Positions 1 to 30,290 of a DNA stretch of 64,000 nucleotides are shown here, piece by piece (the stretch's first letter is position 1; the number at the start of each line of letters is the position of its first letter). The notes under the pieces were generated by a model that was given only the letters and a program-made list of their open reading frames with translations, was not told the origin of the DNA and ran no database searches. The DNA comes from Candidatus Aenigmatarchaeota archaeon (GTDB lineage: Archaea > Aenigmatarchaeota > Aenigmatarchaeia > QMZP01): assembly GCA_043824495.1 (NCBI GenBank), contig JBDRSV010000024.1:91056-155055 (forward strand), read 5' to 3'. Position numbers and translations under genes: made by a program.

Positions 1-767
1 TTTTCTATCCCAACCACTTTTCTATGCTGGGCGACATCCAAGTAAAAGGCGCCGTAAATGCTATTCCGAAAACGGCTACAGCAGAAATTTGGGTGGCATA
101 TCTCGATTCGAACGGAATCGAAGAGAGACTACGTCCCATCAGATCCGAGCTGAAAAAGGAATTTGCATCAAGCGATTCCAATCTCGCGATCATATTCAGG
201 TCTAGTTCTCGGACTGAGTTTATGGCAGACGAAGTGGCGCATGATGTGATCAATTTTCTCCTGGAGATGCCAGACGGTGTCATTAGCATGTCACTTGATC
301 TGGAGGATGTTCCATACACATCCTCGAATGTTGGAGTCGTGAAAATCGAAAACGACTCTCTGGTTGTGGAAATATTGTCCCGATCCTTCTCTGATGACGA
401 TCTTTCCTGTATGAAAATGGAGATCGATCGCATCTGCCAGAGTCACAGTGCCACTGTAGAGTTCCCTGTAGAATCTTCAGGTTGGGAACCAAACCCTGAC
501 TCATATCTCCTTCAGGTCGCGCAAAAAACATGGGGTGAATGCGTTGGTGAGAATCTCAAACTTGTGGCAGTTCACGCAGGGTTGGAAGCTGGCGCAATTC
601 AAAACCGATGTGAAATCCTGTTTCCTAACAGGATAATGGACGTCATCTCACTTGGCCCCCAAATCGAGAAATCACACACATCAGATGAGAGAGCGTCCAT
701 CACATCCGTCGTCCAACTCTACAATTTCATGAAAGTTTTCGTGCTCGAATTGGTACATGAAAACTGA
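1..767 (+). CDS. Xaa-His dipeptidase (PepD-like, M20 family) C-terminal fragment, 5' end outside the window
   Basis: Open frame from base 3 to the stop at 767. Motifs HAGLEAGAIQ and LGPQIEKSHTSDERASI resemble the PepD C-terminus. GC-rich. Confidence 0.45.
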   Translation, partial: FYPNHFSMLGDIQVKGAVNAIPKTATAEIWVAYLDSNGIEERLRPIRSELKKEFASSDSNLAIIFRSSSRTEFMADEVAHDVINFLLEMPDGVISMSLDLEDVPYTSSNVGVVKIENDSLVVEILSRSFSDDDLSCMKMEIDRICQSHSATVEFPVESSGWEPNPDSYLLQVAQKTWGECVGENLKLVAVHAGLEAGAIQNRCEILFPNRIMDVISLGPQIEKSHTSDERASITSVVQLYNFMKVFVLELVHEN

Positions 768-876
768 TTGAGGTCTGTAGTGAATCACGTAGAAAAAAAG
801 GAACAGAAGAGAATGTTAATTTTTTCAAATCAAGCAGCGAACAACAAAGTTCGCTCAGAAAACTGAGGTGATTTTC

Positions 877-2388
877 ATGACTCAACAGGAAGCCCTCACA
901 AGGCTTACAAAACTCTGGGGAAAGGCTGCACTTCTCGATTCTTGTGGCCAGCTTCTGGGATGGGACGAACGAGTTTACATGCCCAGAAAGGGTGCAAAAC
1001 ATCGCGCAGATCAGCTTGCCATGGTGGCGGGAATGGTGCATGAACTCCAGGTTGATCCCAGAATCGGTGATCTTCTGGGTGCAATCAGCGGAAGTGATCT
1101 GGTTCGCGACCCGAGTTCAGACGCTGACGTCATCGTCCGCGAAATCGGCCGGGCTCACTACCGGCTGGTGAAAATGCCGCAATCGCTGGTCGAAGAGATC
1201 ACGCGCGTCACTACGCTCGCCCAGGGTGCGTGGGGCGAGGCGCGCGCCAACTCCGACTTCAAGTCGTTCAAGCCATGGCTGGAGAAAGTCATCGCACTGA
1301 AGAAGCAGGAAGCCGAAGCCGTCGGGTACAAAGACGATCCATACGATGCCATGCTCGATGTTTACGAGCCGGGCGCAACGGTCACCTCAATCGACGAGAT
1401 CTTCGCCAAGAACCGTGAAGAACTCGTGATGCTCCTCGATAAGATCAAAGGCTCGGGCAAAGGCCCCGACACCACGATCATCACCCGTGAATATCCAATC
1501 GAAGCACAGAAGACATTCGGTCACGAGGGCGCTGCCGCAATCGGTTTCGACTTCGAGCGCGGTCGTCTCGATATCACGACCCACCCCTTTTGCGCCGGCA
1601 TCGGCCCCGGCGATACGCGCATCACCACTCGTTACGATGTCCATCATTTCCCCGGCGCGTTCTTCGGTATACTGCACGAGGCCGGACACGGTATCTACGA
1701 CCAATGTCTGCCCGATGACAAGTTTGGCAGTCCGCTGGGTGAGTATATCTCGCTCGGTATCCACGAGTCGCAGTCGCGCATGTGGGAAAATATGGTCGGA
1801 CGCTCACGCGCCTTCTGGACACGCATGTATCCCAAAGCGCAGAAGGCATTCCCCAAAGCGTTAGGCGATGTTCCGGTTGACGCGTTCTATTGGGCGATCA
1901 ACGACGTCCGTCCGTCGTTCATCCGTGTCGAAGCCGACGAGGCCACTTACAACCTGCACATTCTGCTGCGTTTCGAAATGGAGCGCGCGTTCTTCTCGGG
2001 TGACTTGAAGGTCGATGACATCCCGGGCGCCTGGAACGAGAAATTCAAATCATACTTCGGCATCACCCCGCCCAATGACGCGCAGGGCTGCATGCAGGAC
2101 GTTCACTGGAGCGCGGGACTGGTTGGCTATTTCCCGACCTACGCACTTGGCAATCTCTACTCTGCGCAGTTCTTCGCCAAAGCCAACGAGGATCTCGGCG
2201 ACCTCCACGCCCAATTCGCCAAGGGCGAGTTCGCACCGCTGAAGAAGTGGCTGCAAGACAACATCCACAGCCACGGCCGCCGCTATCTCGCATGCGAGCT
2301 GGTCGAACGTGTCACCGGCAAGCCGCTCGGCTCCGAAGCGGTGATGGCGTACATGAACAAGAAGTTCGGTGAACTCTACGGCTTCTGA
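877..2388 (+). CDS. M32 family carboxypeptidase (Taq/thermostable carboxypeptidase 1-like)
   Basis: HEAGHGIYDQ (HExxH) and IHESQSRMWEN (the HESQS motif diagnostic of M32). GAGGTG SD 6 nt upstream of ATG 877. The ORF track starts at GTG 868. Confidence 0.8.
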   Translation: MTQQEALTRLTKLWGKAALLDSCGQLLGWDERVYMPRKGAKHRADQLAMVAGMVHELQVDPRIGDLLGAISGSDLVRDPSSDADVIVREIGRAHYRLVKMPQSLVEEITRVTTLAQGAWGEARANSDFKSFKPWLEKVIALKKQEAEAVGYKDDPYDAMLDVYEPGATVTSIDEIFAKNREELVMLLDKIKGSGKGPDTTIITREYPIEAQKTFGHEGAAAIGFDFERGRLDITTHPFCAGIGPGDTRITTRYDVHHFPGAFFGILHEAGHGIYDQCLPDDKFGSPLGEYISLGIHESQSRMWENMVGRSRAFWTRMYPKAQKAFPKALGDVPVDAFYWAINDVRPSFIRVEADEATYNLHILLRFEMERAFFSGDLKVDDIPGAWNEKFKSYFGITPPNDAQGCMQDVHWSAGLVGYFPTYALGNLYSAQFFAKANEDLGDLHAQFAKGEFAPLKKWLQDNIHSHGRRYLACELVERVTGKPLGSEAVMAYMNKKFGELYGF

Positions 2389-2538
2389 GAAGTACAATAC
2401 ACCGAATAAACCAGAGTCACTAAAACCCGATAACCTTTAATCCCAGTGGCTAGTAGTGTCGGTCGCTGGGCTGTGGTTCGAGGGAGTTCGCCACAAGAGG
2501 CTCGATGTTCAAGGAGACTGGACTCGAAAGGTTGACAA

Positions 2539-2947
2539 CATGATGAGACGCATGATTTTCTTGTTGCTGTCGCTTCTGCTGGTGATCAGTTGCTCAGACT
2601 CGGATACTTCAGACGGTTTCTTCCCAAGTCTTGACGAGCAGTATGCTCAGGGTCTGGGAATGTCTTCTGACAAACCATTTCAGGGATTTTATGATCTTAG
2701 TAGTGGATGCAAGATCATACCTGGTGGTCATGTCGAAATTTGCTGCAGAATCCAAGGCGGTCTTAGTCTGGCTGTCAAGGACGCAGTGAATCGCTCCGAT
2801 CGACTAAAAATAGAATTCGGTGGTATCGAGAGCGTCTTATTCGAATCTGGTCAGACAGAAGACACCTTGCGATTGACGGCGATTTCCGAAAAACACCGCG
2901 AGAAAAGGTTGTACATTGTGGTGGTGAACAGTGCTGTGGGGACATAG
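2539..2947 (+). CDS. lipoprotein (hypothetical)
   Basis: MMRRMIFLLLSLLLVISC shows a signal peptide with lipobox LVISC. The ORF track gives 2456..2947; ATG 2539 preferred. Confidence 0.5.
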
Positions 2948-2966
2948 GTTCTCGCCGCGAATCCAA

Positions 2967-3010
2967 ACAGGTATTCAAGAAGAGTCAATTCCTTCTGCCT
3001 GTTTTTAATT
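2967..3010 (+). terminator. intrinsic terminator-like hairpin followed by T-run
   Basis: AAACAGG...CCTGTTTTTAATTT immediately after the lipoprotein stop. Confidence 0.4.
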
Positions 3011-3030
3011 TGTCTAATTAAAGGGATATA
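3008..3030 (-). repeat. junction motif copy 1 (AATTTGTCTAATTAAAGGGATATA; reverse-complement orientation)
   Basis: Matches four other copies at 17660, 20176, 36287 and 56967. Sits exactly at the GC-to-AT composition switch. Confidence 0.85.
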
Positions 3031-3110
3031 GAAAGAAAAAATTAGAAATGTTCAGACATATAAACCTTATAAACTATAATGCTCAATAATTGGTATAATT
3101 CGAAAGGAAA

Positions 3111-3458
3111 ATGACATATATGAAAGCTAAGACAGATATTGGGGTTGGTTTGAAGCCACCTGAGCATAAATGTGAAGAAGAAAACTGTGCATGGCACGGG
3201 AAATTGCCTGTCAGAGGCAGAGTGTTTAGAGGTAGAGTTAGGGCCGCTAAATCTCAGAAAACAGCTATAATCGACTGGGGATTCCATAGATTCGTGCCTA
3301 AATACGAGAGATATGAGAGAAGAAAATCAAGAGTGACTGTTCATAATCCTGGCTGTATGAATGCTAAAGAAGGGGATAATGTTGTAATAGCAGAATGCAG
3401 ACCAATTTCAAAGACAAAGCACTTTGTAATTGTTGGTGTGCAAAAGGAAGGAAAATAA
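3111..3458 (+). CDS. rps17: 30S ribosomal protein S17 (uS17)
   Basis: KTAIIDWGFHRFVPKYERYERRKSRVTVHNP and GDNVVIAECRPISKTKHFVIV are typical archaeal uS17. Confidence 0.8.
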   Translation: MTYMKAKTDIGVGLKPPEHKCEEENCAWHGKLPVRGRVFRGRVRAAKSQKTAIIDWGFHRFVPKYERYERRKSRVTVHNPGCMNAKEGDNVVIAECRPISKTKHFVIVGVQKEGK

Positions 3459-3459
3459 T

Positions 3460-3858
3460 ATGAAAGCGATATCAGCCAATATGACAAGGTGTTTGCCTGT
3501 GGGAGCAAGAATTAATTGTGTAGATAATTCAGGAGCAAAAATAATTAGAATAATTTCTGTAAGAGGATTTAAAGGTATACGAAGAACAATTCCTTCAACT
3601 GGTATTGCTGGTTTATTCCAGTGTAAAGTACTCAAAGGAAATGAGAAAGTTCGACATCTGGTTCATAAAGCTGTTATTGTAAGACAAACAAAAGAATTCA
3701 GAAGAGCAGACGGAACAAGAGTGTCATTCGAAGATAATGCAGCTGTATTAGTGGATGACAAAGGGGATCCAAAGGGTAATAGCATCAAGGGTCCTATTGC
3801 AAGGGAAGTTGTTGAGAGATTCCCAACAATTGGTAAGATTGCAAGCACAGTAGTTTAA
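3460..3858 (+). CDS. rpl14: 50S ribosomal protein L14 (uL14)
   Basis: CVDNSGAK, AVIVRQTKEFRR and FEDNAAVLV motifs. The ATG at 3460 follows the S17 stop. Confidence 0.85.
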   Translation: MKAISANMTRCLPVGARINCVDNSGAKIIRIISVRGFKGIRRTIPSTGIAGLFQCKVLKGNEKVRHLVHKAVIVRQTKEFRRADGTRVSFEDNAAVLVDDKGDPKGNSIKGPIAREVVERFPTIGKIASTVV

Positions 3859-4211
3859 TGGTGACTGACATGACAGATAACATAGATTTCAGTGAATTCC
3901 AAAAAGTTAATATAAGAATAGGAACAATTGAAGCAGCTGAGCCTGTTGAGAACACAGAAAAGCTGTTGAGGCTTCAAATAAGTTTAGGCGAAGAGAAGAG
4001 ACAAATTGTTTCTAGTATAGCAAAGGATTTCACACCTGATCAACTCATTGGTAAGCAAATACCAATACTTACCAACCTGGAGCCAAAAAGTTTCAGAGGA
4101 ATTGAAAGTCAGGGTATGATCTTACTGGTCGTAGAGGAACAAGATGGTTCAGAAAAGCTCACATTAATAACGCCTGAAAATAAAGTTCCTACAGGATCTA
4201 CAGTCAGGTAA
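3858..4211 (+). CDS. tRNA-binding domain protein (Trbp111/EMAP/MetRS C-terminal-like OB fold)
   Basis: VNIRIGTI...EKLLRLQISLGEE...GKQIPILTNLEPKSFRGIESQGMIL pattern. ATG overlaps the L14 stop (TAATG). Confidence 0.55.
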   Translation: MVTDMTDNIDFSEFQKVNIRIGTIEAAEPVENTEKLLRLQISLGEEKRQIVSSIAKDFTPDQLIGKQIPILTNLEPKSFRGIESQGMILLVVEEQDGSEKLTLITPENKVPTGSTVR

Positions 4212-10782: not shown

Positions 10783-11007
10783 ATGAGCGGATTAACTGCA
10801 GCCGAGAAAGAAATTCTAGAAATAATGTCAAAGAGACTTTTAGTAACAACAAGAGAGTTGAACAAATTCTTGAGCTCTGATAAATACAATGGAGGAACTG
10901 ATTTTAGTTTACAGAGACTTGTAGATCAAGGATACTTAGAAAGAGTAGAATCCTTAGGGACAACTGTTGTTGTAACTCAGAAAGGCTTGAGAGCTCTAAA
11001 AGCTTGA
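10783..11007 (+). CDS. small winged-helix DNA-binding protein
   Basis: 74 aa; TTRELNKFL...LQRLVDQGYLERV is an HTH-like pattern. Confidence 0.4.
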   Translation: MSGLTAAEKEILEIMSKRLLVTTRELNKFLSSDKYNGGTDFSLQRLVDQGYLERVESLGTTVVVTQKGLRALKA

Positions 11008-11070
11008 GTAAAGATCTTTTTATAGTAAAATGACATATATAGAAGTACTTCGATCGAATGATCTTAGAAT

Positions 11071-11234
11071 AGCCCCGTAGTGTAGTGGTCAAAGTTTGAC
11101 AACCTGTGTGCTCGCATGTAGTTGTCTACACGACTAGGCATATCGGGCCTTGGTTTTCGCAACTAAGGATCTGAGCGAGAAATCGCTGTGAAAGAGGATA
11201 CCCGGTGACTGCGGTTCGAATCCGCACGGGGCTA
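11071..11234 (+). tRNA. intron-containing tRNA, probably tRNA-Gln(UUG), with two putative introns (D-loop region and anticodon loop)
   Basis: 7-bp acceptor AGCCCCG/CGGGGCT with A1-U72 and discriminator A. D-loop AGUGG. T-arm TGCGG-TTCGAAT-CCGCA. Anticodon stem TCGGG/CCCGG with loop CCTTGG...A. Total 164 nt implies about 90 nt of intron. Confidence 0.55.
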
Positions 11235-11266
11235 TCATTTTTATTGTATACTTACAATTATTTCTT

Positions 11267-12952
11267 ATGTATCCACTAGAAAAGTTCAGAGACGATATTA
11301 AATCAGTGATAGCTGAATACAAAAAGATAAAGAAAGATGAAGTTGTTTTAGCAAAACCTCCTCAAGGTATTCCAGCAGATTTAGCCTATCCATGTTTTGG
11401 CTTGGCTAAAAGAGAAAAAAGAGATCCAGTAGAATTTGCTCTCACAACAGTGGAGAAAATAAAACCTAGAGGATTGATATCCAGAATAGAAGCTAATGGT
11501 CCATACATAAACTTCTATGCAGACTGGAGTAAGATGGGAAGCTTAGTTTTGAATGGAATAATAAAAGAAAAAAACGCTTATGGTAAAGGAAAGAAAAAGA
11601 ATAAGATTCTAGTGGAACACACTTCAGCCAATCCAGATGGTCCTTTACATCTAGGTCATTTCAGAAACACTGTTATAGGAGACTCTTTAGCAAGAATATT
11701 ACGATTCTATGGTCATGAAGTAAAAACAGATTTCTATGTAAATGATACAGGAAGACAAATAACTCTAGCTTCTTGGATGTATTTACAAAATGAGCCTAAA
11801 CCTAAAGGTAAGCTAGATTGGTGGGTTTATGACTTGTATTTCAAATGTAACCAGAAATTGAAAACCAATCCAAGTATAGAAAATGAAATAACAGATATGA
11901 TGCTTAAGTTTGAAAATGGAGATAAAGAACTAAGAAAAACACATGAGTTCATAGTTGATCAATGCTTGAAGGGGCATAAAGAAACTCTAGAAAGCATTGG
12001 AATTAAAATCGATAGATTCTCAAAGGAAAGCGAATTCCTATTCACTGGAAAAGTTGATGATGTTTTGAAGAAGATACTCAAAACAAAGGAAGGAAAATCG
12101 TCTGGTAAAAGAGTATGGGTTGACTTGAAACAATTCAAAATAGAAAGAGAATTCACTCTAACAAGATCTGATGGAACAACAATTTATCCAGCAAGAGATT
12201 TGGCATATCATGCAGACAAGTTTGAAAGAGCAGATCAAAACATAAATATTATAGGAACAGATCAGAAATTTTACTTCAAGCAGTTAACATCAACTCTTGG
12301 TTTACTATTTCCAAAGAAAACAGAGAATTATCATGTTTTGTTTTATGAGTTTTTGCTGTTGCCAGAAGGAACAATGTCTACACGTTTAGGTAAATTTATT
12401 TCAGTTGATGAACTTGTAAAGAAATTTACAGAAACTGCAAGAAAAAGTATAGAAATAAAAAATCCAAAATACTCAACTAAATTCAAGGATGATATAGCTA
12501 AGATGGTTGGTATAGGTGCATTGAAGTATGCAATGATAAAAGTTTCGCCTGAGAAAACATATTCTTTCAGTGTGGATGACAGCCTAAATTTCGAAGGTAA
12601 CACGGCACCTTATATTCAATATACTCATGCAAGAGCTTCTTCGATACTTCAGAAAGCTGGTAGTAGCAAACATGTAATCAAGTATATAGGAGAAGAAGAG
12701 AAACAAGTCATGAACAAGTTAATGGAATTCCCATATGCAGTGAAAAGAGCTTCTAAAGAATATAGACCACACATAATAGCTAACTATGCATATGATCTAG
12801 CAACGTCTTTCAATAACTTCTATCACTCGGTTCCTGTACTGAAAGCAGAAAAAGACTTAATAGGAACAAGACTAGCTATAGTAAAAGCTGCTCAGATAGT
12901 TTTGAAAACAAGTCTAGATCTTCTAGGTATAGAAGCACCTGATAAGATGTAG
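11267..12952 (+). CDS. argS: arginine--tRNA ligase
   Basis: HTSANPDGPLHLGHFRNTVIGD (HIGH region), GTMSTRLGKFISVDEL, DALK-type anticodon-binding C-terminus. Confidence 0.9.
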   Translation: MYPLEKFRDDIKSVIAEYKKIKKDEVVLAKPPQGIPADLAYPCFGLAKREKRDPVEFALTTVEKIKPRGLISRIEANGPYINFYADWSKMGSLVLNGIIKEKNAYGKGKKKNKILVEHTSANPDGPLHLGHFRNTVIGDSLARILRFYGHEVKTDFYVNDTGRQITLASWMYLQNEPKPKGKLDWWVYDLYFKCNQKLKTNPSIENEITDMMLKFENGDKELRKTHEFIVDQCLKGHKETLESIGIKIDRFSKESEFLFTGKVDDVLKKILKTKEGKSSGKRVWVDLKQFKIEREFTLTRSDGTTIYPARDLAYHADKFERADQNINIIGTDQKFYFKQLTSTLGLLFPKKTENYHVLFYEFLLLPEGTMSTRLGKFISVDELVKKFTETARKSIEIKNPKYSTKFKDDIAKMVGIGALKYAMIKVSPEKTYSFSVDDSLNFEGNTAPYIQYTHARASSILQKAGSSKHVIKYIGEEEKQVMNKLMEFPYAVKRASKEYRPHIIANYAYDLATSFNNFYHSVPVLKAEKDLIGTRLAIVKAAQIVLKTSLDLLGIEAPDKM

Positions 12953-17754: not shown

Positions 17755-19629
17755 TTACTTCAGAAGCGTCATCTTTTTGCTTTCCGTCAGGCTGGCCGTT
17801 TGCAACCGATAGAAGTACATACCGGACGCGACGGCCTTACCGTAGCGGTCGGTTCCGTCCCAGCTAACCTGATGTGTTCCTTCGGGCTGGGACCCGTTGA
17901 CGAGAGTGGCAACGTTGCGGCCGAGGATATCAAAGACCTCTAGCTTTACGTCTCCTCCCTGAGTCAACTGATAGGAAATCACGGTTCCGGCGTTGAAGGG
18001 GTTCGGGTAGTTCTGGTTCAAGCTGAATGATGTAGGAACGGCTCCTGTTGTCTTGTACGCGATGTTCAGCGTACCTAATGGAATCCACCCAGCCGGAACT
18101 GTCCGGCTGTTGTTGATCTCGTCAGCTATCGTTTTGGCCAACTCGTGATCGCCGAATGGATCGTCGATCAAGTTGTCGCAGTATGTTACCGCCTGTGACA
18201 CAGTCGCGCCGTCATCGCTAATCACAGCGGTTTGTGCCAGTTTGCCGCTAGCGACATTGAGTAGCAAAGCCATGAGTTGCTGTCTGGCTCGATCAATCAT
18301 GTCAACGCTGCCCTTGAGGTTCAGCAACGTCTTCGCGACTTCGAGCTTGTCTTCACAAAGATCCGACACGGGTGGATCGTACACGACGACCTCGTTCACT
18401 GCGTTCGAGTTGAAGTGGCCCGCGATGAGGTCGAGATAGCTACACAGAGTTGAAGCATCGATTTGCGCGCGGCCATTCCCACCAGTAGCGACGCCGACGT
18501 TGTGTTTCCAGAAGCCGATTGTTCGTTGTTCTCCAGCGTCTGACGGGCATCCCAATTCAAAGTCGATTTGGGCTGTGCCTTCACAATCGAGATCGACGGA
18601 CTGTTCGCTCGGAAATGCCGTATACCCGAGGGGGCCAACAAATGATACCATGTAGCTGGCCTCACCCGGGAGGTTCTCGAAATCGTAGTAACCGGCTTCA
18701 TCAGTCACAGCCGATTCTACAAGTACACCGGTGGCATCGAAGACATCAATCGTGATACCAAGAACAGAGCAGTCAGCACTCAGTGTGCCCTCAATTGCGG
18801 CGAAGCATTCTTCCTCTCCACCTCCGCATGCACACGTTCCATCTTCCACCTCAATGGCGGTGATGGTGTTGTCGTAGGCGTCCTTTGACCAGACGACGGT
18901 CAACGGCGCGAAGTTGATGACGTCGCATTCGAGATCCTCATCCCGACCACCGATCGTCGCGAAGTCACTGAGATACACGCCCGTTGTCTTGTCAATGCGA
19001 ACGATGTTGCCCAGACCATCGCGCCCGATGTAAAGGGTGTTCCCCGTCCCAACAATAACACCACTTATTCGATCCAGTGTATTGCCGGCCGCGTCGGTCG
19101 GATACAACGTTCCCAGATAGGCTCCCGAGCCCGCATCGAAGTGGTCAATGCCCGTTGATACATCATCGGAAACCCAGACACTGTTATCCGTCGCATCAAA
19201 GCCAATGCCGTCGATGAAACAGAAGCCCGGTGTTACCACAGAAAACTGGAAAGTGGCTACGCCGGTGGTGGGATCGATGAGATACACGTTCGCCGGACAT
19301 TCGTTGTCACTGCCTCCCCAGATCATGTTGCGCGTATTGTCCCATGCAATAGCGCCGATCGAAACTGGTGTGCCATCCGGTTTGAAAATGGAAACGAAGC
19401 CGAGATCGGTGCCGAATTTGTCTATCGAGTAGAGAGTTGGGTCGAAAGAGTTGGTGTAGAAAATCACACCATCACATCCAACTGCAACACCGATACCGAC
19501 ACCAGACGAGCTTGGAACAGGAACTGTGACGTTCGTGATGACATCACCGGGAGCTGCCATTGACGTAGCGGTGATAGCGGTGAAGAGGCAGAACACAACA
19601 AGCGCAGTGAAAGCTGTGAGACGCTTCAT
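17755..19629 (-). CDS. secreted protein with T9SS (Por) C-terminal sorting domain, CarboxypepD_reg-like domain and beta-propeller-like repeats
   Basis: Signal peptide MKRLTAFTALVVFCLFTAITATSMA. EAGYYDFENLPGEASYMVSFVGPLGY. C-terminal NYPNPFN...YFYRLQTASL sorting domain. GC-rich. Confidence 0.6.
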   Translation of the reverse strand: MKRLTAFTALVVFCLFTAITATSMAAPGDVITNVTVPVPSSSGVGIGVAVGCDGVIFYTNSFDPTLYSIDKFGTDLGFVSIFKPDGTPVSIGAIAWDNTRNMIWGGSDNECPANVYLIDPTTGVATFQFSVVTPGFCFIDGIGFDATDNSVWVSDDVSTGIDHFDAGSGAYLGTLYPTDAAGNTLDRISGVIVGTGNTLYIGRDGLGNIVRIDKTTGVYLSDFATIGGRDEDLECDVINFAPLTVVWSKDAYDNTITAIEVEDGTCACGGGEEECFAAIEGTLSADCSVLGITIDVFDATGVLVESAVTDEAGYYDFENLPGEASYMVSFVGPLGYTAFPSEQSVDLDCEGTAQIDFELGCPSDAGEQRTIGFWKHNVGVATGGNGRAQIDASTLCSYLDLIAGHFNSNAVNEVVVYDPPVSDLCEDKLEVAKTLLNLKGSVDMIDRARQQLMALLLNVASGKLAQTAVISDDGATVSQAVTYCDNLIDDPFGDHELAKTIADEINNSRTVPAGWIPLGTLNIAYKTTGAVPTSFSLNQNYPNPFNAGTVISYQLTQGGDVKLEVFDILGRNVATLVNGSQPEGTHQVSWDGTDRYGKAVASGMYFYRLQTASLTESKKMTLLK

Positions 19630-20175
19630 GGATTTTTATTCCTTAGGTTGTGAGGGAAATATGACCCTCCGGGTTTGTTTTTCGATTAGTTTCTGATTGT
19701 TTGTCGTTTACCACGTTTCCAAGTTAAGGTCCGCGAATCGCTATTTTCATTGGCATCCTCTCTTTGGGTTAATGTTGTCCGCACAAATTGCGGGATTAAA
19801 AGAAGGAAAGACACAAAAGATAGAGTATGTCTTATGTAGACTGAGAGTAAAATCATTCGAAGAATAAAGCTAATACTATTAAAACAAACATGCATGTTTG
19901 ATGTGTTTCTTTTCATGTTTTTTGTGTTAGCCAATGTACCGTTTCTATGGTTAATTGGATTGATTGAGTTGCAATCAATACAAATTTAAATGATGTTCGA
20001 ATGAGTAGCATGATTTAAATTGTATACAAAAATTGACGTTGATTCATCGTCGTTTTTTTGTGTTTTGGTATTTTTTTTGATTCTAGCTTGTCGCTTTTGT
20101 CAAGTCTTTAACTCAAGTATATAGCTTACAGGTATTTAAATGTTTTCTAACACATTTTTTTTAATTTTCTTTCTT

Positions 20176-20197
20176 TTATCCCTTTAAATAGACATAT
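20176..20197 (+). repeat. junction motif copy 3 (TTATCCCTTTAAATAGACATAT, slightly divergent)
   Basis: At the AT-to-GC switch that opens island C. Followed by inverted repeat AACGGGCG...CGCCCGTT. Confidence 0.75.
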
Positions 20198-20199
20198 AA

Positions 20200-23100
20200 A
20201 AAGGCAAACGGGCGAAGATTTGGAGCCAAACTCTTCTTGATGTCTCACCTCCGCCCGTTAAATGCCGTTGTCCGGCCTATCAATTTACCCGCCGGTTAGG
20301 TGAGCACATGTGCTCGTGTCCCAGAGGCGCATGTTTTCATGCCCTCCTTTGCCGGGTTCTTACGCGAACGTGCTGCTTGACCGAGATAATGTAGCTGCCA
20401 GATTCCCCACAACCTTGTTATTGGTGGAACCGCGACAGCGGTCGGTCCAGTCCGTATGCATCGTAGCCTCACTTGGTGAAGGACTGCGAATCAAGAGACG
20501 GGGATTCAGAAGAATCCCCGTCTCACGAGTTGACGGTTGGTACGAGATATATCAAAGGAAGTCTTTATGCCATTGGGTGCATTCCGAAACCTTTAGCCTC
20601 GTCCGTCTCCGAGGGATCCTATCAAAGGTTTCATAAAGGAAATTTCATGGACCTCGTTACGATAGGATCGGAGTGGCGTAAAGCCACGGCCAGAACCTCG
20701 AGGTCCCCCAGGATAAGATCACCGTTTGAATATGAGTCAGCGGTGAACGTAAGGGTGCTGGCGATTCTTCTTCGCATTCAAACCCTCCAGGGAACACTTC
20801 GTAATTTGTGTTGTCAGCGGCTGTTTACGAATCGGCGGTGATCGTTTCCACCACGGTACATGTCGGCGTGGTGACAAACGATGAAGAAGCGACTTCAAAA
20901 CGCGCGCGGCCATTGCTCGGCGGCGGCGAATGAGCCCAGGCATTGACGGCGGTCGCGGCGGTATTCATCCAGGAAGCGACCACTGGTGACCCGCGAAGGG
21001 TCGGTAATCGGTTCATAGAGCAAGCTCCATTTCTTCCGATAGGAAAATTCCAATCCACTTTACAAACTCTCGCCTAAACAGAAAGTATTGTCACATAACT
21101 TTCCGTCGCAAAAGAGAATGTGAAGAGGAAACAATTTCGTACACCTCGTCAAGAGATCGTCTCCATTTTCACCCTACATGGGCTAGGCGAGAGGATAGAC
21201 CAGTTGCTGATAGAGATGTAGAGGGAACCGTTTTCATCCGAAGATCTCTCCCGTCCCTCAGGGAGTAAGTTGCTCGTCCACCAGGTTCCCATACCAAGGG
21301 AGCTGGCAACTCTGCCATTCTCTCTATCCGACTCTCTGTTGTCATCGCCACTACGGCAACAACTCTTAGCCTATCCGGCGTAGGATTATGAGAGTGTAGA
21401 GCGAATTCCTCGTTCCATGTTTGTTCTGTATCGCTGCCTGTTATGATATCCAATCCTGAAAACGGGATTGGGTCAGCGGTATAAACAATACAGGAACCAT
21501 ATATGAGGTAGCAGAGTGTCATGATTCCCAGCATGACAACTCCTTACAAGGGCACATGGTTATATGGTAAATGCTCTCTCCGTCAACAAATCGTGCCCTC
21601 TAAGACATGTTTAGGAGAGAAAGGCGACAACTCATGAAGTGTTCTTCAGGTGGACCCGTCATCACTGTTATTGCGTTGACGGCCTTCTCCTTGACCCGGA
21701 CTTAGACGTGTGGCTTTCGGTGTTTTCGCGGCGCGTTTCTGCTGTTTTGGACTACGCTTCTTGTTGCTCGGAAGCCCGTCTCGGGCACCACCGTGACACG
21801 TCATGAAAGACCTCGTTTGTGAGGAGTTCAGTTCAAGCTTGTGCTGGAACTGTTTGGAACGAGGAATTGTTACTCTTTACGGCGAGCGATTGTGTGTCAT
21901 CGTAACTCCTTGACAATGGTTTCCACAAGCTCCAAAATAAAAAAGAGCTGTTGTTTTCAAATTCAGTTGGGAATCTCCTAGCCCGCCCCCAGAACTGACT
22001 AGAGGAGATCCCCAACTTTTGTACAGCGCACCCCGTGCATTGTTTTCAGGGTGGAGGGGCCCGGCGGTCAACTGAGCCCCTCACTGGACGAATCGGTCAC
22101 AGATAACATGTTACGCATTACCGACTCGAAATCTATGCCACGGCAGTAGATGGAAGTGGTCGCATCTACCGCCGGGCTTCACGACGTTGTGCATTTTGTC
22201 GCCTTCAGCCTTACACAACGCCGTTATTTCCCCACCCACAGGGAATTTAATATCGCGGGGCCTCACTCAGGAGACCCCGCTTCCGTTGGGTTTACTACCG
22301 AATTGTTCGGTAGCGTTCTTCCACGACAGACATACGCACATGCGCACGTCTTCATTTCTTTGAGGACCTACTCATCTCCGATTTGAGTAGGTCCTCGGCT
22401 CCCCACAACCCCCCGATCAGCACCGGGAATTTTTTTGAGGGGAAATCTGAGCAGATATCTCAGACTCCCCTCCCGTCAGGTCTACCGACCAGCACTTCCG
22501 GTTGGACGCCGGAAATTCTTTATTAGAAGGGGTTTCCCCTCTCCAAGAAACCCCTTCCTCTTCGGCGTAGCGCGTCTCACGCGCTTTAGTGCATCGATCC
22601 CCACCGATCAGGTAAAACCCTTGGATGGTTCTCTCCCCGAACCCCCACTGAAATATTTTGGAACCCCTCATAGATCCCCGTAATCTCCGAGAGGTTCCGA
22701 CAGCAGCACCATACAAATGGGACTACCGTGACAATCAAAAATACCGGAATCCACCGCGTCAGAAGAGGATTCCGGTATTCTACATCGCTGGTTGTGTTGA
22801 GAGCTTACCCCTTACTGGTCTTAACGAGTATGTTACGTCGGACTTCCTTTCACCAAATATACGGGTCACTACAGAATACCCGATCGATCCGCTTTGTTGT
22901 CTTAATCTCACCAGCGGATAGTGACGCGGTTACAGCCAGCGATTTCGCCTTTATACAACAGGCGTCTCCAAACCAAAATGGAAATTGGAGTTGTTGCTTC
23001 CACACTTCCGGATTTCCCCCTCCGGTAAACTCTAAGGTACTGATAGGTGACCGCTCGTGTTTCTTGTGTTCGCAATTGCCGATTGCATCAAGCTCTTCGT

Positions 23101-23800
23101 AGATCTAGATCTGGAAGTAATTAGCAAACGATCACAATAAACAGACAACTGGGAGAAGTCCATTTCTACCAGTACCTGGATTTTCTAACCCTCGGGAGGT
23201 GTGTACAAGCCTAAGCAGAGTTTGTCCTGTTGAATTGGCCCCGAGGGTAAGTGGCCTTCCGGAAGAGAATTGGTGAGGTCCTGTAACAGAACTCTATCTC
23301 ATTCCGGGGTAAAGCTCAAGGCACAGCCAGAAGGAGACGTATTACCTTGAGAAGTTGGTCTCCCGAGTGAAGAAATTCGAGATGTCCCATCGATGAAGGA
23401 CATCTCTTCTCCACTCGGGCTCATTCGTCAGCCTGGAAGGAGAAGTGCAAGAGTTTTCGCGCAATTACTCTCTCTCCTCCCGGGAAATTTATGACCTCCT
23501 GGTCCGAAACTTGTGCCGCGGTAAACCAGAAGGCGTAACTGCTAGGCTATGTGACGGCCACAGCAGTAGGGATCGAATCCAATACACGAAAGACAGCTAA
23601 GACTAACTCTGTCTCGTGTGGTTTACGAGTAAAATTCAGAAATCGATAGTCTTCGGCCTCTTCGAGGGAAACTGCTTAAGCGCTTAATTGCAGCGCGTTA
23701 TGTTTCCTGGTAAGTGACCTGTTCTCTAGGATGTACCGAAGGCTAACTTAGTTAGTCTCGGGAAATTCGCGTGTGATTGGTAGAAATGAAACATGAAATG
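20200..23800. other. GC-rich ORF-poor island C, dense in perfect hairpins; candidate structured ncRNA(s) or degraded foreign DNA
   Basis: No ORF over 125 aa in 3.6 kb, versus dense coding elsewhere. Many perfect 6-13 bp inverted repeats, e.g. 22363..22397, 22525..22556, 22741..22778, 23366..23430. Confidence 0.5.
21169..21534 (-). CDS. small hypothetical protein with N-terminal hydrophobic segment
   Basis: Perfect SD AAGGAG plus 5 nt before the ATG (rc of 21535-21546). MLGIMTLCYLIYGSCIVYTA is signal/TM-like. Confidence 0.4.
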   Translation of the reverse strand: MLGIMTLCYLIYGSCIVYTADPIPFSGLDIITGSDTEQTWNEEFALHSHNPTPDRLRVVAVVAMTTESRIERMAELPAPLVWEPGGRATYSLRDGRDLRMKTVPSTSLSATGLSSRLAHVG

Positions 23801-23949
23801 TCCTTATATATAAATGTAATTTAATTACTTAAATAGGTTGATGGATAGCTTTAAAAAGGTACTATTAAAATTATTTTTTTGTGAAGGGATCGATATACCA
23901 AGTGCTTCCAAAAATAAAGAGTAGAAAAAAATAAGAGTGAAAAAAGCAA

Positions 23950-25992
23950 TTAACCAATGAATTCAACCTTTTCAAAACTGCCGTTTTCTTCAAATTTGTC
24001 TAATGTTGATACGAAAATTATTACTTTTTTCTTGTCTTCTTTACAGATTCTAGCTGCTTGTTGTATTACCATGTTCTTGATTCTGTCTGAAGCACATATG
24101 AAATGATTGCTTTGTTTCAAGTCCTGATAAATTAATTCTCTATCATCTGTGTCTTCAACCATTATAGTTAATTCTTTTCCATCGTTCTGTAAATATATTC
24201 TGTTACCTTCTTGTTCACTCTTCCATCCGACTTCATTAAAGGTCTGCATGATACCTGTTAAGTTCAATTCTTTTTTCTGTGTTGAGTTACCAAATTTATT
24301 AGTGAAAACTTTCTCTCCTATATTTGTAAGAAAGTAATAACATAATCTATTCTTCTTAACTTTAGCATCAGCTGAATCAACTAATCCGTTATAAGTTAAG
24401 TTCTCAACCTTTTTCTTGAAAGTTGCTCCTGACATTTTTACATTTGTGTATATCTGAGATGTGTAAGCAGCACTACCATTACCAATGGTTTTCATCATAG
24501 CCCACTCTTGTTCTCCTAAATCCTCAATTGGAAGAGAGTTTATGAATTCTTCTTCCTTTACTGGAGGAGGTGAGTAGCTATCTTCTTTAGCTATTCTGTC
24601 TTTCATGTGCTCTCTGATATCATCATCTACAATAGAGTTCTTAACCAGTTTAGCCTTGTCGAATTTTACAAGGAATGGTTCTGGGAAATTCATAGAGTGT
24701 CTCAAAAGCATGAAACCGTGACCTACTGGCAGTCTTCTTAGATACTTACCTTCTTCTCTAGAATCAAGACCAAGCATGTTTGAAGCGTCTTGAATATCTG
24801 AAGTATGTTTTGTATCCAAACCTAGATTCATGTATATATGAGTAGAAGTATTACCAATTGCTGGATATGAAACTAAAGATGGATGCTGATCTATGTATAT
24901 CATTCCTAATCCTAATTCTCTAATTTCTCTAAATATTAATTCTACAACGGTTTCTGATCCTAATTTGGCAGATTTTTCTCTGTTAAGAACATGATGAGCT
25001 TCTTCCATCACTATACATCCTATGACTTCTTCTTTTCCGCCTTCTACGAGTAACCAATCTCTTATCCACTGTAGAATTATTTCTATGATAAAGCTCTTAT
25101 CATTAACATCAAGAGCATCTAATTCTAGAATTGTTACCTTTCCTTTCTTGAAGAAATCAGATGGTTTTATACCTTCTACACAGTCGAATATATGACCTGT
25201 GTCTTTGAAGCATAATGACTCTAATGGTCTTTCAGCTGTTGCTAACCAGTTTCTTTCTCTTGTTGGCAGCTTACCTTCTGCATATTCTGCTAAGTAATCT
25301 TTAAGGTCAAACAGTGTTGGATTTTTCTTTTCCTTGAAAACTCCATCTAAAGCTTTCAAGATTACGTGTCTTCCACCACCGAGTAACCAGTAAGAATGAT
25401 CGAATATTGAAGAGAACTCTTTCATCCACTGTGTTTGACTAATTCCTTTAGGACCTTTCAGTGGATTGAATTTGAAAGGAGCTACGCCTCTTCCGATTGT
25501 GTAAATATCTATTTTGTCTTTAATTTTAGTTGATAGTAAATCTTTATAATTTCTCTTAGAGAAATCAAATATCAAAACAGGAATATCCTTTTCTGCTAAT
25601 TCTTCAATTAAGTTATATGAAATATTTGTTTTACCATAACCAGATGAACCAAATATTCCTATATGTGTAAGTAAGTTTTTCTCTTCTAGCATGATTGGAT
25701 ATAAACCCTTTCTTCCGTATAAAACATCACCTAATCTAATTGTTCCTTTAGCTGCTGCTTCTTGGCTAGGAGGTTCCATTAGTACTGTATCTCTTAGATC
25801 TTCATCAGCAGAAACTGCGGCTTTTATAACATCAAGTAGTTCGAAGATTCTTTGTCTTACATCTTCGTTTCCAACTAAGTAAGCTTTACTTAATCTCAAA
25901 GCTTTGTCTTTACCCAAGATTGGAGTAAGCTTCTTAATTTCATCTGCAATTAGTTTTTCTTGAATATTAATCATTTGTACCACCCAAATCAT
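23950..25992 (-). CDS. HerA/FtsK-superfamily ATPase (DUF87-like) with C-terminal winged-helix region
   Basis: Walker A GIFGSSGYGKTN. Walker B IVMEEAHHVL (EEAH typical of HerA). C-terminal wHTH-like segment. Confidence 0.6.
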   Translation of the reverse strand: MIWVVQMINIQEKLIADEIKKLTPILGKDKALRLSKAYLVGNEDVRQRIFELLDVIKAAVSADEDLRDTVLMEPPSQEAAAKGTIRLGDVLYGRKGLYPIMLEEKNLLTHIGIFGSSGYGKTNISYNLIEELAEKDIPVLIFDFSKRNYKDLLSTKIKDKIDIYTIGRGVAPFKFNPLKGPKGISQTQWMKEFSSIFDHSYWLLGGGRHVILKALDGVFKEKKNPTLFDLKDYLAEYAEGKLPTRERNWLATAERPLESLCFKDTGHIFDCVEGIKPSDFFKKGKVTILELDALDVNDKSFIIEIILQWIRDWLLVEGGKEEVIGCIVMEEAHHVLNREKSAKLGSETVVELIFREIRELGLGMIYIDQHPSLVSYPAIGNTSTHIYMNLGLDTKHTSDIQDASNMLGLDSREEGKYLRRLPVGHGFMLLRHSMNFPEPFLVKFDKAKLVKNSIVDDDIREHMKDRIAKEDSYSPPPVKEEEFINSLPIEDLGEQEWAMMKTIGNGSAAYTSQIYTNVKMSGATFKKKVENLTYNGLVDSADAKVKKNRLCYYFLTNIGEKVFTNKFGNSTQKKELNLTGIMQTFNEVGWKSEQEGNRIYLQNDGKELTIMVEDTDDRELIYQDLKQSNHFICASDRIKNMVIQQAARICKEDKKKVIIFVSTLDKFEENGSFEKVEFIG

Positions 25993-27869: not shown

Positions 27870-28022
27870 ATGTCGCAGGGAACCAAAAACACCAAAGACA
27901 CAGGAACAAGAGCGTTTCTGGTTATCGACGGAACTACAGGAGACCTCATTCCTGTGAAAGCATCGTCTGGACGAAAAGCTGAGCAAATCGCCGGCAGCGT
28001 AACCAGACAATCCCGCAAATAA
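27870..28022 (+). CDS. small hypothetical protein (50 aa)
   Basis: AAGGAGGG SD 7 nt before ATG 27870. Hairpin GAGTATC...GATACTC after the stop. Confidence 0.3.
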   Translation: MSQGTKNTKDTGTRAFLVIDGTTGDLIPVKASSGRKAEQIAGSVTRQSRK

Positions 28023-28159
28023 AATTACCCACTGTGAATTCCCCAGGAGTATCATCCGCCCGGAAGATACTCTGTTCTCCCCCATACTACCATAGGCCAC
28101 ACGGAGCTCATCAGGTTTTCACTTGGTGGGCTCCAGTGAGATCTTTGGTGGTTAACGTT

Positions 28160-28240
28160 CCATAACCGTTTCATTCACAACCTTTTGCCGACCTTGTCTG
28201 CATTGCAGCTCAAGGAAGTGTGTAAAGGAAGGAGAGTGTC
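28160..28240 (+). promoter_or_regulatory. conserved leader/promoter region copy A (CCATAACC...CCTTTTGCCGACCTTGTCTG...AAAGGAAGGAGA-ATG)
   Basis: About 75% identical to 32682..32757 upstream of gene 32758. Preceded by GAGCTCAT...GGTGGGCTC, similar to 31980-32030 and 32613-32665. Confidence 0.5.
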
Positions 28241-28942
28241 ATGTTATTGCATGTAACAGTAATAAGCCGCGGAGACAGAACAACGATCGATGTTCCCAGA
28301 ACAGAATTCAACTGGGATACCAATCAATGTCGCGTAGTTGAAGGTGCAGAGGAAGCTGAAAGAAATCTCGGGGTGGCGGAGAATCTCGAAATCCGTAAAC
28401 CCGCGGCTTACCAGGGACCCTATTTATACTGTATTGTAGAGGTGGGGTTCGAGGAAATTTGTTTTCCCCCGACTTTCCTCAAGTGGATCGAGAATGTTCC
28501 CGAGGATGAGAAAAGAGCCATCCTTATCGTTCCCACCAAAACCATCCGAAAGGCCGATGATAGTCACTATATGGGATCTATAGATCGTTATAGGTATTAT
28601 CCTCATGGTGAAGTCTTCCTGATTGGTCGCAGAATCATCGTGAGGAACATCTACCTATCACCTGATAACATCAAGATGGTGGTGGATAAAATCCTTGCCC
28701 GACTGAGTGACGGCCTGTTCCTCCGGTTGGCCTTTGAGTTTCTCCAGGCTACGCCGATCAGTGACAATCCTACGGTGACTGGAGAACATATCACCATGTT
28801 GGATAATCTCTTCACGGGGACGCGTTCCCTTCGGAGAGGAGATTCAACTCGTCGCGAACGGTTCAATCATGTTCGGGCCGTGATTGGACATATGGCCAAA
28901 CACGGGATAGTTCTGTCTGGCAAGATCGAACCCGTGAAGTAA
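28241..28942 (+). CDS. hypothetical protein
   Basis: 233 aa, GC-rich, strong SD AAGGAAGGAGAG. No family recognised. Confidence 0.5.
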   Translation: MLLHVTVISRGDRTTIDVPRTEFNWDTNQCRVVEGAEEAERNLGVAENLEIRKPAAYQGPYLYCIVEVGFEEICFPPTFLKWIENVPEDEKRAILIVPTKTIRKADDSHYMGSIDRYRYYPHGEVFLIGRRIIVRNIYLSPDNIKMVVDKILARLSDGLFLRLAFEFLQATPISDNPTVTGEHITMLDNLFTGTRSLRRGDSTRRERFNHVRAVIGHMAKHGIVLSGKIEPVK

Positions 28943-28995
28943 TCAACGGCTTGGAAACCAAGTCAAATCAACGACAATGAAAGTTGAGGTGTAAT

Positions 28996-29316
28996 ATGAA
29001 TAGGCGAATACAGAGTATGATTGTGATGACTGCGACTTTGATAGCTGTTGCAGTCTTTCTCCAAGTCTCACAGCTTCACGCGGCACATTTGATGGCAACC
29101 GCAATTGCAATTGCGGTTGTGGTGATGATCGTTGTTAACATGGGAAGAGTTCCCAACACTCGGCAGAAGTTTCGGAACTTCTCTGTCGGAGCCGTTTTCG
29201 GGAGCATCTTCCTGTGGGAGTTGTTCAAGGTTACGTTCTTGAATCACCCTGCGGCTCTTTGGAGTGTGGTTGTACTCGGAGCTGCGGCAGTCTCATTTCT
29301 GACGTTCCGCCGGTAG
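28996..29316 (+). CDS. small membrane protein
   Basis: Three hydrophobic helices. ATG 28996 preferred over the track start 28984. Confidence 0.4.
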   Translation: MNRRIQSMIVMTATLIAVAVFLQVSQLHAAHLMATAIAIAVVVMIVVNMGRVPNTRQKFRNFSVGAVFGSIFLWELFKVTFLNHPAALWSVVVLGAAAVSFLTFRR

Positions 29317-29330
29317 TACTGAAGTTCACC

Positions 29331-29380
29331 GGGGATCCCGATCAATCTGGTTGGGATCCCCTCAACCTGACAATAAACTG
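29331..29380 (+). terminator. hairpin GGGGATCC-N15-GGATCCCC followed by TTGACAAT -35 box (cassette copy 2)
   Basis: Perfect 8-bp stem right after stop 29316. The TGACAATAAAC repeat also occurs at 27343 and 30278. Confidence 0.5.
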
Positions 29381-29414
29381 TTGTTAAATGTTCCATTACA
29401 CCAAGGAGGGCGCA

Positions 29415-30233
29415 ATGCGTCACCAACGTTTCATCACCACAGTACTGGCACTCATGTTCTTGACTGTGCCGGCAATGTTCAGCAGTGCGGTTCTGGCCGA
29501 TCCGATTTCATCCGGAGACGGTCAAATGTATGTGGTCCAACAGGGAGATTGGTTGACGCGGCCGATCATCCCGACACTCTACTCGGATGTGTTGAAGCCA
29601 GGCGACTTGAAGAGTGCTCTCTGGATCGCTGACATCTTCGATACACTCAACATTAACATCACCCACCGCGACAAAATTCGGGCGTATGATACCATCATGG
29701 CGCCGTCATTCGCGGCGTTGAAGAAGTACAAACATCTCGCACCCGCCGACGTGGTCATCAACCTGTTCGCCACGTATGATATCGCGTCCATGGAACTTGT
29801 GGACGCCGAGTTTGTAAGAAAGCGCATCGAGGACTTTGAGGGTACTTACTGGTACAAAAATCGAGCCGCGTGGGCCCGAATTTTCGGAGTCGGTAATGGC
29901 ACGTATGTCTGCGGTGACACCGTGATGCCGTTCTCATGGTTCATGAGCTGCAATACGGACGGTAATACGGGAATGACTATCTCCATCTCCATGGACGAAG
30001 GAGATCTCACCGCAGTTCGCAAGGTTCCAGGTACACGTAACGGATTCTGGGGAGCCAGTCGTGACAATAAGTTCACATACGTGGGCTTCGGCAACGACTG
30101 GATCGATCGTTGCGACTGGAATGACGAGACCGAGAGCTGGGACATTCCACCAGTTCTGAATGAGATCGTCGGAACTCTCAACAACTTTCCATTCGTCCAG
30201 TATATGACCGTCGTCGCGTACGAACTGGAATAG
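29415..30233 (+). CDS. secreted hypothetical protein (paralog family with 30334..31659)
   Basis: Signal peptide TTVLALMFLTVPAMFSSAVLA. AGGAGGG SD. C-terminal FPFVQYMTVVAYELE resembles the paralog's FFTNMKVIMYTVK. Confidence 0.5.
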   Translation: MRHQRFITTVLALMFLTVPAMFSSAVLADPISSGDGQMYVVQQGDWLTRPIIPTLYSDVLKPGDLKSALWIADIFDTLNINITHRDKIRAYDTIMAPSFAALKKYKHLAPADVVINLFATYDIASMELVDAEFVRKRIEDFEGTYWYKNRAAWARIFGVGNGTYVCGDTVMPFSWFMSCNTDGNTGMTISISMDEGDLTAVRKVPGTRNGFWGASRDNKFTYVGFGNDWIDRCDWNDETESWDIPPVLNEIVGTLNNFPFVQYMTVVAYELE

Positions 30234-30241
30234 TTGTTACA

Positions 30242-30290
30242 GGGGATCCTGACCAATTCGGTTGGGATCCCTTCAACTTGACAATTAACG
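30242..30290 (+). terminator. hairpin GGGGATCC-N15-GGATCCC followed by TTGACAAT (cassette copy 3)
   Basis: About 80% identical to 29331..29380. Confidence 0.5.

Follow-up and report, generated by a model that had tools for sequence, protein, structure and literature searches.

Which tRNA, if any, is encoded by a 164-nucleotide (nt) segment that ARAGORN in its default mode and Rfam both pass over? The segment lies at 11071-11234 (+) of a 64,000-nt stretch of DNA (the window, hereafter) from a metagenome-assembled genome of Candidatus Aenigmatarchaeota, a DPANN archaeon. An initial annotation had read it as a tRNA-Gln gene interrupted by two introns, one of some 45 nt in the D-loop and the other of some 46 nt following position 37. 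An intron-set search and ARAGORN run on the spliced product both agreed with this reading and set the introns at exactly 45 and 46 nt, with cuts after gene positions 22/67 and 83/129. We conclude that the segment is very probably the precursor of a tRNA-Gln(UUG), from which two protein-spliced introns would be removed to yield a 73-nt tRNA carrying C33. The gene is made up as follows, C33 being common to this gene and to the related loci L013, L015, L022 and L034.

11071..11234 (+): whole tRNA-Gln(UUG) gene, 164 nt, CCA not encoded (sequence, ARAGORN on the spliced product, intron-set search).
11071..11092 (+): exon 1, positions 1-21, with the acceptor 5′ strand, U8 and A9, the D-stem 5′ strand GUGU and the D-loop AGUGGUCAA.
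11093..11137 (+): intron 1, 45 nt, between tRNA positions 21 and 22, at the D-loop/D-stem junction (intron-set search, relatives, energy, shuffles).
11138..11153 (+): exon 2, with the D-stem 3′ strand GCAU, A26, the anticodon stem 5′ strand UCGGG and loop nucleotides C32, C33, U34, U35, G36 and G37.
11149..11149 (+): C33 replacing the nearly invariant U33.
11150..11152 (+): anticodon TTG (Gln) (ARAGORN on the spliced product, intron-set search).
11154..11199 (+): intron 2, 46 nt, at the canonical position 37/38 (bulge-helix-bulge scan, intron-set search, shuffles).
11200..11234 (+): exon 3, with A38, the anticodon stem 3′ strand CCCGG, the variable loop UGAC, the T-arm, the acceptor 3′ strand and the discriminator A.

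Written as exons and inserts, the gene reads AGCCCCGTAGTGTAGTGGTCAA-[45 nt]-GCATATCGGGCCTTGG-[46 nt]-ACCCGGTGACTGCGGTTCGAATCCGCACGGGGCTA (11071-11234 +). Removal of 11093-11137 and 11154-11199 yields the 73-nt cloverleaf AGCCCCGUAGUGUAGUGGUCAAGCAUAUCGGGCCUUGGACCCGGUGACUGCGGUUCGAAUCCGCACGGGGCUA, which is called tRNA-Gln(ttg) by ARAGORN. When either insert was retained, ARAGORN found nothing or forced a tRNA-Pro with another intron. The acceptor stem of the product has 7 base pairs (bp), AGCCCCG/CGGGGCU, with A1-U72 and discriminator A. Once intron 1 is removed, the D-arm reads GUGU-AGUGGUCAA-GCAU, a 4-bp stem closing a loop that contains G18G19. The T-arm TGCGG-TTCGAAT-CCGCA, at 11210-11226, is the sole T-arm motif in the window. 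The anticodon stem is TCGGG/CCCGG and its loop is CCUUGGA, with the purine at 37 present. The acceptor end, the T-arm and the anticodon stem are as first described; the claim of a canonical anticodon arm holds for the stem and fails for the loop, in which C33 had been overlooked. In the seven confident genes of the window, CAA and CAG codons stand at 26:14. Since CAA is the commoner glutamine codon, a working UUG-decoding tRNA-Gln is needed.

Relatives were found in three ways: by a T-arm plus acceptor scan of species-representative genomes, by a metagenome scan with the anticodon-stem/T-arm segment, and by synteny with the gene of the arginyl-tRNA synthetase (ArgRS). The searches gave about 25 related DPANN tRNA-Gln genes (designated by L numbers), each with 0-3 introns and all with A1-U72 and a UUG or CUG anticodon. 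Compared with about a dozen of them, the spliced product of the window is identical at 59-67 of 73 positions (81-92%), while the introns diverge freely. The D-loop AGUGGUCAA of exon 1 is identical to that of L033, L011 and L010.

A scan of the 164 nt for bulge-helix-bulge (BHB) motifs showed a single outstanding one, at 37/38. In the usual notation, where h is the outer helix, H the central helix and h′ the inner helix, it has h=7, H=4 and h′=7 with two 3-nt bulges, and is of the strict hBHBh′ form: uaucggg-CCUU-[GG|U]-uuucgca ... ugugaaa-GAGG-[AU|A]-cccggug. Shuffled inserts reach this geometry with a frequency of 0.00004. Its two halves are located as follows.

11141..11161 (+): 5′ half of the intron-2 hBHBh′ motif, with h TATCGGG, H CCTT, bulge GG|T (cut after 11153) and h′ TTTCGCA.
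11187..11207 (+): 3′ half, with h′ TGTGAAA, H GAGG, bulge AT|A (cut after 11199) and h CCCGGTG.

The motif of intron 1 is of the relaxed HBh′ kind, so that the search for BHB motifs at the proposed junctions, which the initial annotation had suggested, gave a perfect motif at one intron and a relaxed one at the other. It consists of the 4-bp central helix GGUC/GACU, two 3-nt bulges and an inner helix; this inner helix has 2 bp beside the bulge, then a mismatch, then GACAAC/GUUGUC. Shuffled inserts match the geometry at the required register with a frequency of 0.005. According to a passage of PMC4090602 that follows Marck and Grosjean, the relaxed HBh′ motif is known from other archaea.

11087..11095 (+): 5′ half of the intron-1 motif, with helix GGTC 11087-11090, bulge AA|A 11091-11093 (cut after 11092) and h′ GT 11094-11095.
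11130..11138 (+): 3′ half, with h′ AC 11130-11131, helix GACT 11132-11135 and bulge AG|G 11136-11138 (cut after 11137).

Several registers are possible for intron 1, and relatives were therefore used for choosing among them. We searched without bias for combinations of BHB-like introns that leave a full cloverleaf when removed, and obtained three two-intron solutions for the window. Only the cuts after gene positions 22/67 and 83/129 give a 73-nt product with the D-loop AGUGGUCAA of the family. In L015, L013 and L022, the nearest of the syntenic relatives, which have no D-loop insert, the mature D-arm GUNU-AGYGGYCAA-GNAU can be read directly, which fixes its sequence; it is likewise uninterrupted in the intron-less L010, L011 and L006. 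The 21/22 junction is common to seven genes (window, L033, L034, L036, L005, L003 and L007). Among relatives the central helix takes the forms GGUC/GACU, GGUC/GGCU, GGCC/GGCU and GGAC/GUCU, its third pair covarying as U-A, U.G, C-G and A-U. The palindrome GTCAAAGTTTGAC, originally placed inside the D-loop insert, is indeed present at 11088-11100 (+) but straddles the junction of exon 1 and intron 1, and it has no part in the splice motif.

Starting from the motifs, the cloverleaf product, the orthology and the covariation described here, the course of maturation would be as follows. The pre-tRNA-Gln would be transcribed, the archaeal splicing endonuclease would cut in the four bulges and an RtcB-type ligase would join the three exons, CCA being then added to the 73-nt tRNA. 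An EndA with an L3 loop has been linked to disrupted tRNA genes in DPANN archaea (PMC5829648). Pfam scans of 30 open reading frames (ORFs) of the window showed no EndA, fibrillarin or Nop5.

Several observations weigh against a two-intron tRNA-Gln precursor. For the unspliced gene, no tRNA is reported by ARAGORN in default mode or by Rfam at gathering score over the whole window, nor by Rfam at E<=10 on 10950-11350; weak Rfam matches near the gene (HPnc0260, SpF41 and others) cover the T-arm alone. The intron-1 motif is relaxed, with no outer helix and an h′ of 2 bp before the mismatch, and several registers are available for pairing between the GU-rich 5′ part and the 3′ part of this intron. 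C33 makes the anticodon loop not fully canonical and leaves the locus without the U33 of the tRNA class; we file it as a tRNA despite C33, because all its other features and its orthology agree with that class. ARAGORN was silent on the unspliced gene and called the product spliced in silico tRNA-Gln(ttg). Rfam's tRNA model scores intron-less and one-intron orthologues at 46-64 bits (L011 63.7, L010 57.4, L015 49.9). The initial annotation had held that either the lack of a tool match or a single-intron solution with another anticodon would speak against it. At face value both were found, the second as a tRNA-His(GTG), and we ascribe them to limitations of the tools, since the His and Pro calls are structurally poor and are contradicted by the relatives. 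The His call, obtained from ARAGORN with introns allowed, spans 11070-11236 with a 74-nt intron. A single-intron tRNA-His(GUG) is barely credible: its D-stem would contain wobbles and mismatches, its anticodon stem an A.C mismatch, and its variable region would be 21 nt long with no stem; there is no BHB at its junctions, and it ignores the perfect one at 37/38. The relatives all align as Gln, and a GUG anticodon finds no support in any of them. The single-intron tRNA-Pro(UGG/AGG) solutions of ARAGORN were rejected on structural and comparative evidence; the UGG form places its intron inside the anticodon, with no BHB, and in one forced Pro call the anticodon stem contains a C.A mismatch and the D-stem is followed by two unpaired bases.

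Two further explanations accept a tRNA-Gln and differ in what becomes of it. Intron 1 could be spliced in another register of the same helix, 17/61 (hBH), giving a 74-nt tRNA with the D-loop AGUGGACUAG, or 15/63 (strict hBHBh′ with 2-bp flanks), giving a 70-nt tRNA with the D-loop AGCUAG. Both registers have a 4-bp central helix between two 3-nt bulges, both products are also called tRNA-Gln by ARAGORN, and 17/61 has the 4-bp outer helix that the preferred register is without. We nevertheless consider such a register improbable. Neither product has the 9-nt D-loop AGYGGNCNA seen in every relative, the 15/63 product is also without G18G19, and neither helix is kept in L033, L034, L036 and L005, where the 22/67 register is kept with covariation. 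When both BHBs are enforced in the fold, the 22/67 register reaches -52.4 kcal/mol and the two rival registers -47.8 and -44.2, less stable by 4.6 and 8.2 kcal/mol. Registers 15/63, 16/62, 17/61 and 21/68 were all set aside on D-loop conservation, unconserved helices in the relatives and energy. Alternatively, the gene could be a decaying pseudogene that retains its D-loop insert or is crippled by C33, another gene supplying tRNA-Gln(UUG). The departure of C33 from a nearly invariant position (PMC5041475) and the relaxed motif of intron 1 would fit decay. Against it, C33 is common to five species-level relatives with all stems intact, although ArgRS is just 63-65% identical, and the change of U33 to C is accompanied by compensating changes in two distinct stretches of the intron. 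The gene is moreover syntenic, is followed by a likely T-run terminator and has exons 81-92% identical to those of relatives while the introns diverge, which makes decay a very improbable explanation.

The two-intron tRNA-Gln precursor thus brings with it an anticodon loop without the usual uridine. U33 is 'almost invariant', C33 being found essentially only in eukaryotic initiator tRNAs (PMC5041475). The eukaryotic cytoplasmic initiator tRNA-Met likewise has C for the U-turn U33 (PMC5041475); here, in contrast, the tRNA is an archaeal elongator tRNA-Gln, the change is confined to one Aenigmatarchaeota clade, and it is coupled to changes in an intron. CC-UUG-G is found in five species-level sequences from independent assemblies (window, L013/L014, L015/L016/L020, L022 and L034/L035), so that C33 is neither an error nor a private mutation. 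The next relatives, L018, L033, L036 and L039, and all the others have CU-UUG-G. Within the central helix of the BHB, position 33 faces G in 5/5 C33 genes and A (once G) in U33 genes. A hexamer within intron 2 follows suit, being CUAAGG in 4/5 C33 genes and CYAAAG in most U33 genes. We infer that the C33 tRNA is functional; editing of C33 back to U is less likely.

This hexamer belongs to a second conformer of intron 2, which combines it with an element resembling a kink-turn (K-turn).

11163..11168 (+): hexamer CTAAGG, complementary to anticodon-loop positions 32-37, an alternative to the BHB central helix.
11171..11191 (+): K-turn-like element, with a box D′-like CTGA at 11171-11174 and a C-stem hairpin GCGA-GAAA-TCGC at 11175-11186.
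11187..11191 (+): 3′ side of this element, with a 3-nt bulge TGT at 11187-11189 and GA at 11190-11191.

The GA at 11190-11191 forms tandem G.A/A.G pairs with the GA of CTGA. We aligned the anticodon arm and intron 2 of 13 genes; the layout seen in the window recurs in L013, L015, L018, L022, L033, L034, L036, L039, L002, L008, L009 and L004. Inside intron 2 only a few hexamer bases and the two GA dinucleotides are invariant; the 5′ part and the hairpin vary freely. Over these genes the hexamer is 97% paired with loop positions 32-37, against 59-67% when the partner is slid by one column. A spacing of 2 nt between the hexamer and the D′-like box is invariant, and as a result of this register the fifth nucleotide upstream of the box faces U34 in 13/13 genes, the residue that the N+5 rule of box C/D guides would single out. 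After the spacer come CUGA, UUGA or UCGA, then a hairpin of 2-7 bp with unrelated sequences, or a short loop, then a bulge of 3 nt (4 nt in L015) and GA; L002, L008 and L009 have CUGA-UAAAA-GAUG. The C′ side is degenerate (UGUGAAA).

This UGUGAAA (11187-11193) supplies the bulge and one strand of the non-canonical stem of the K-turn, and is also the h′ strand of the BHB; similarly, loop positions 32-35 have two alternative partners, the hexamer and GAGG. Because they share strands, the hexamer/K-turn conformer and the BHB conformer exclude each other. Both are supported by covariation. The hexamer complementarity is 6 bp, or 8 bp for the window if two nucleotides of the intron are added, and the unconstrained minimum-energy fold of the precursor uses this 8-bp duplex, not the BHB. 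A K-turn and a two-state design are therefore likely to exist in intron 2, as far as alignment and folding can tell. Since the hexamer conformer excludes the splicing motif, intron 2 is probably a switch; it would be controlled by a protein, L7Ae, and would act before splicing. With the archaeal K-turn and K-loop motifs bound by L7Ae in box C′/D′ small RNAs (sRNAs) and in RNase P RNA, the element shares a stem or loop, a 3-nt bulge and tandem sheared G.A/A.G pairs (PMC7994747, PMC4245976); its GA dinucleotides are invariant and its stem covaries. It differs from them in lying inside a tRNA intron and in overlapping the h′ strand of a splice motif, and L7Ae binding is here a prediction.

What might the hexamer conformer be for? 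One answer is that intron 2 is a minimal guide of the box C′/D′ type, with a single K-turn, acting in cis for 2′-O-methylation of the wobble U34. The duplex of hexamer and anticodon loop would form first, beside the L7Ae-bound K-turn, fibrillarin would then be directed to methylate U34, and a switch to the BHB conformer would follow, after which splicing would remove intron 2. The C33 of the clade would then be tolerated or selected because both intron pairings are strengthened. Known archaeal tRNA guides, the pre-tRNA-Trp intron among them, act on position 34 (PMC7994747, PMC11408192). The pre-tRNA-Trp intron also sits at 37/38; ahead of its D′-type box comes a stretch that can pair with the anticodon loop, the fifth nucleotide upstream of the box being paired with wobble position 34. 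There, the guide duplex and the BHB are mutually exclusive, as they are here. The present case differs in concerning tRNA-Gln, not Trp, and DPANN, not Euryarchaeota. The introns of the element-bearing relatives have 34-54 nt, with one K-turn or K-loop and no terminal box C/D; the complementary stretch covers 6-8 bp where the Trp intron has 10-12, UGUGAAA makes a degenerate C′ side, and methylation is hypothetical here. Neither a terminal box C (RUGAUGA) nor a second CUGA was found anywhere in intron 2, which thus has one K-turn only and, for want of box C and a second K-turn, is not classed as a canonical C/D sRNA. A GUGA in the variable loop of exon 3, 11 nt after the C′-like box, was considered as a terminal box D and rejected, being unconserved and having no box C partner. 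By regular expression, no canonical C-D′-C′-D sRNA was found in the window and 12 loci, which is too little sequence for inference. We regard guided methylation of U34 as possible, though less likely than not.

The other answer is that the K-turn and the anti-loop hexamer form a folding or timing device bound by L7Ae, which would protect the loop or delay splicing with no methylation involved. It is the more conservative reading, and we give it somewhat less than an even chance. The two mutually exclusive conformers, each with covariation, and the greater stability of the hexamer conformer fit such a device, as do the single K-turn, the lack of terminal boxes C and D, and a duplex of 6-8 bp where normal guides have 10-12 nt (PMC7994747); C/D complexes with a single motif, furthermore, lose site specificity in vitro (PMC1635284). 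It accounts less well for the invariant 2-nt spacing, which puts wobble position 34 at N+5 in 13 genes: a mere chaperone would not need this register, and position 34 is the very site of known archaeal tRNA guides (PMC7994747).

The distribution of introns over the tRNA-Gln family is patchy.

37/38 intron only: L015, L022, L018, L039, L004 and L017.
37/38 and 21/22: window, L033, L005, L003 and L007.
37/38 and 20a/20b: L002, L012 and L008.
37/38 and 26/27: L009.
10/11 only: L030.
37/38 and a T-loop insert at 59/60: L013.
Three introns: L034 and L036.
No intron: L010, L011 and L006.

Across species the extra introns lie at 10/11, 20a/20b, 21/22, 26/27, 53/54 and about 59/60. The genes at L034 1212-1391 (180 nt) and L036 2304-2516 (213 nt) have inserts at 21/22, at 37/38 and in the T-loop or at the T-stem/loop boundary. 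L030 contains two copies of the 5′ acceptor sequence AGCCCCG within 14 nt. The T-loop insert of L013 (2127-2205, 79 nt) contains the hairpin CCTTTCTTTTCAAAAAAGAAAGG, with like repeats upstream at about 1847-1875 and 1920-1985, and has a relaxed hBH motif only, which uses the T-stem; it is possibly not an ordinary intron but a small mobile repeat.

The multi-intron tRNA genes of Thermoproteales, Nanoarchaeota and ARMAN/DPANN share with the present one a canonical 37/38 intron together with a non-canonical D-arm intron, relaxed HBh′ motifs, patchy presence among close relatives and a tendency to be missed by standard finders. The tRNA-Pro of Pyrobaculum islandicum, for example, has introns at 25/26, 37/38 and 56/57 (PMC4090602, PMC5829648). 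Intron gain, loss and relocation are known from Thermoproteales and have been noted for DPANN (PMC4090602, PMC5829648). What differs here is the host, an Aenigmatarchaeota, and the 21/22 junction, where the review has 20/21 and 22/23 instead. Having two introns is nothing unusual for a tRNA gene of intron-rich archaea; no description of the conserved C33 or of the bistable K-turn/anti-loop intron was found in the literature that could be searched.

The archaeal backbone proposed at the outset is borne out by the host: the ArgRS of the window has a 100% identical counterpart in a metagenome-assembled genome of Candidatus Aenigmatarchaeota, the next relatives being at 63-65%. Its gene, argS (11267-12952), starts 33 nt downstream of the tRNA-Gln gene, and a 74-aa ORF ends 63 nt upstream. 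The surrounding block encodes ribosomal proteins S4e, L30e, S12 and S7, NusA and an RNA polymerase subunit. A tRNA-Gln gene following a conserved ORF of about 73 aa and near argS is found in the window, L013, L015, L034, L036 and L039; it is absent beside the argS of L037 (ArgRS relative P0014). Possible expression signals flank the gene, and a scan for bacterial-type promoters and terminators carries no information for an archaeal host.

11017-11024 (+): second T-rich box upstream of the gene (by eye only).
11035..11041 (+): ATATATA, A/T-rich, which may be a TATA box of archaeal type, some 30 nt ahead of the gene (by eye only).
11238..11242 (+): T5 run, 4 nt past the discriminator, a likely archaeal oligo-T terminator.

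Elsewhere in the window, islands of 44-52% G+C at 1-4000, 18000-24000, 28000-36000 and 56000-60000 stand out from a backbone of 31-36% G+C. They do not adjoin the tRNA gene and may be foreign or mobile DNA. The island at 28-36 kb has five ORFs of 233-663 aa without a Pfam family, and 17755-19629 codes for a secreted protein with FlgD_ig and Por_Secre_tail domains. Further genes include a type IIG-like restriction-modification fusion (Eco57I/N6_Mtase/TaqI_C) at 39330-42056 (-), a DDE transposase at 44028-45038 (+) and a myo-inositol-1-phosphate synthase split by an intein with a LAGLIDADG domain at 47035-49560 (-).

The gene shows why the tRNA sets of DPANN archaea look incomplete. It is missed by ARAGORN in default mode and by the Rfam covariance models, and the sole automatic call of the locus assigns the wrong amino acid. 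Without it, CAA, the more frequent of the two glutamine codons in the genome, would seem to have no tRNA to decode it. With 0-3 introns at no fewer than seven positions, the tRNA-Gln family amounts to a small natural experiment on how introns are gained, lost and moved within a single orthologous gene, and the C33 clade would offer an uncommon chance to learn how an elongator tRNA manages when the uridine of the U-turn is missing. A functional intron-2 element would be a second case, structurally much reduced, of a tRNA intron programming the modification of its own anticodon; should the guide interpretation prove true, the pre-tRNA-Trp paradigm would reach another tRNA and another superphylum, in the form of a natural half-size guide.

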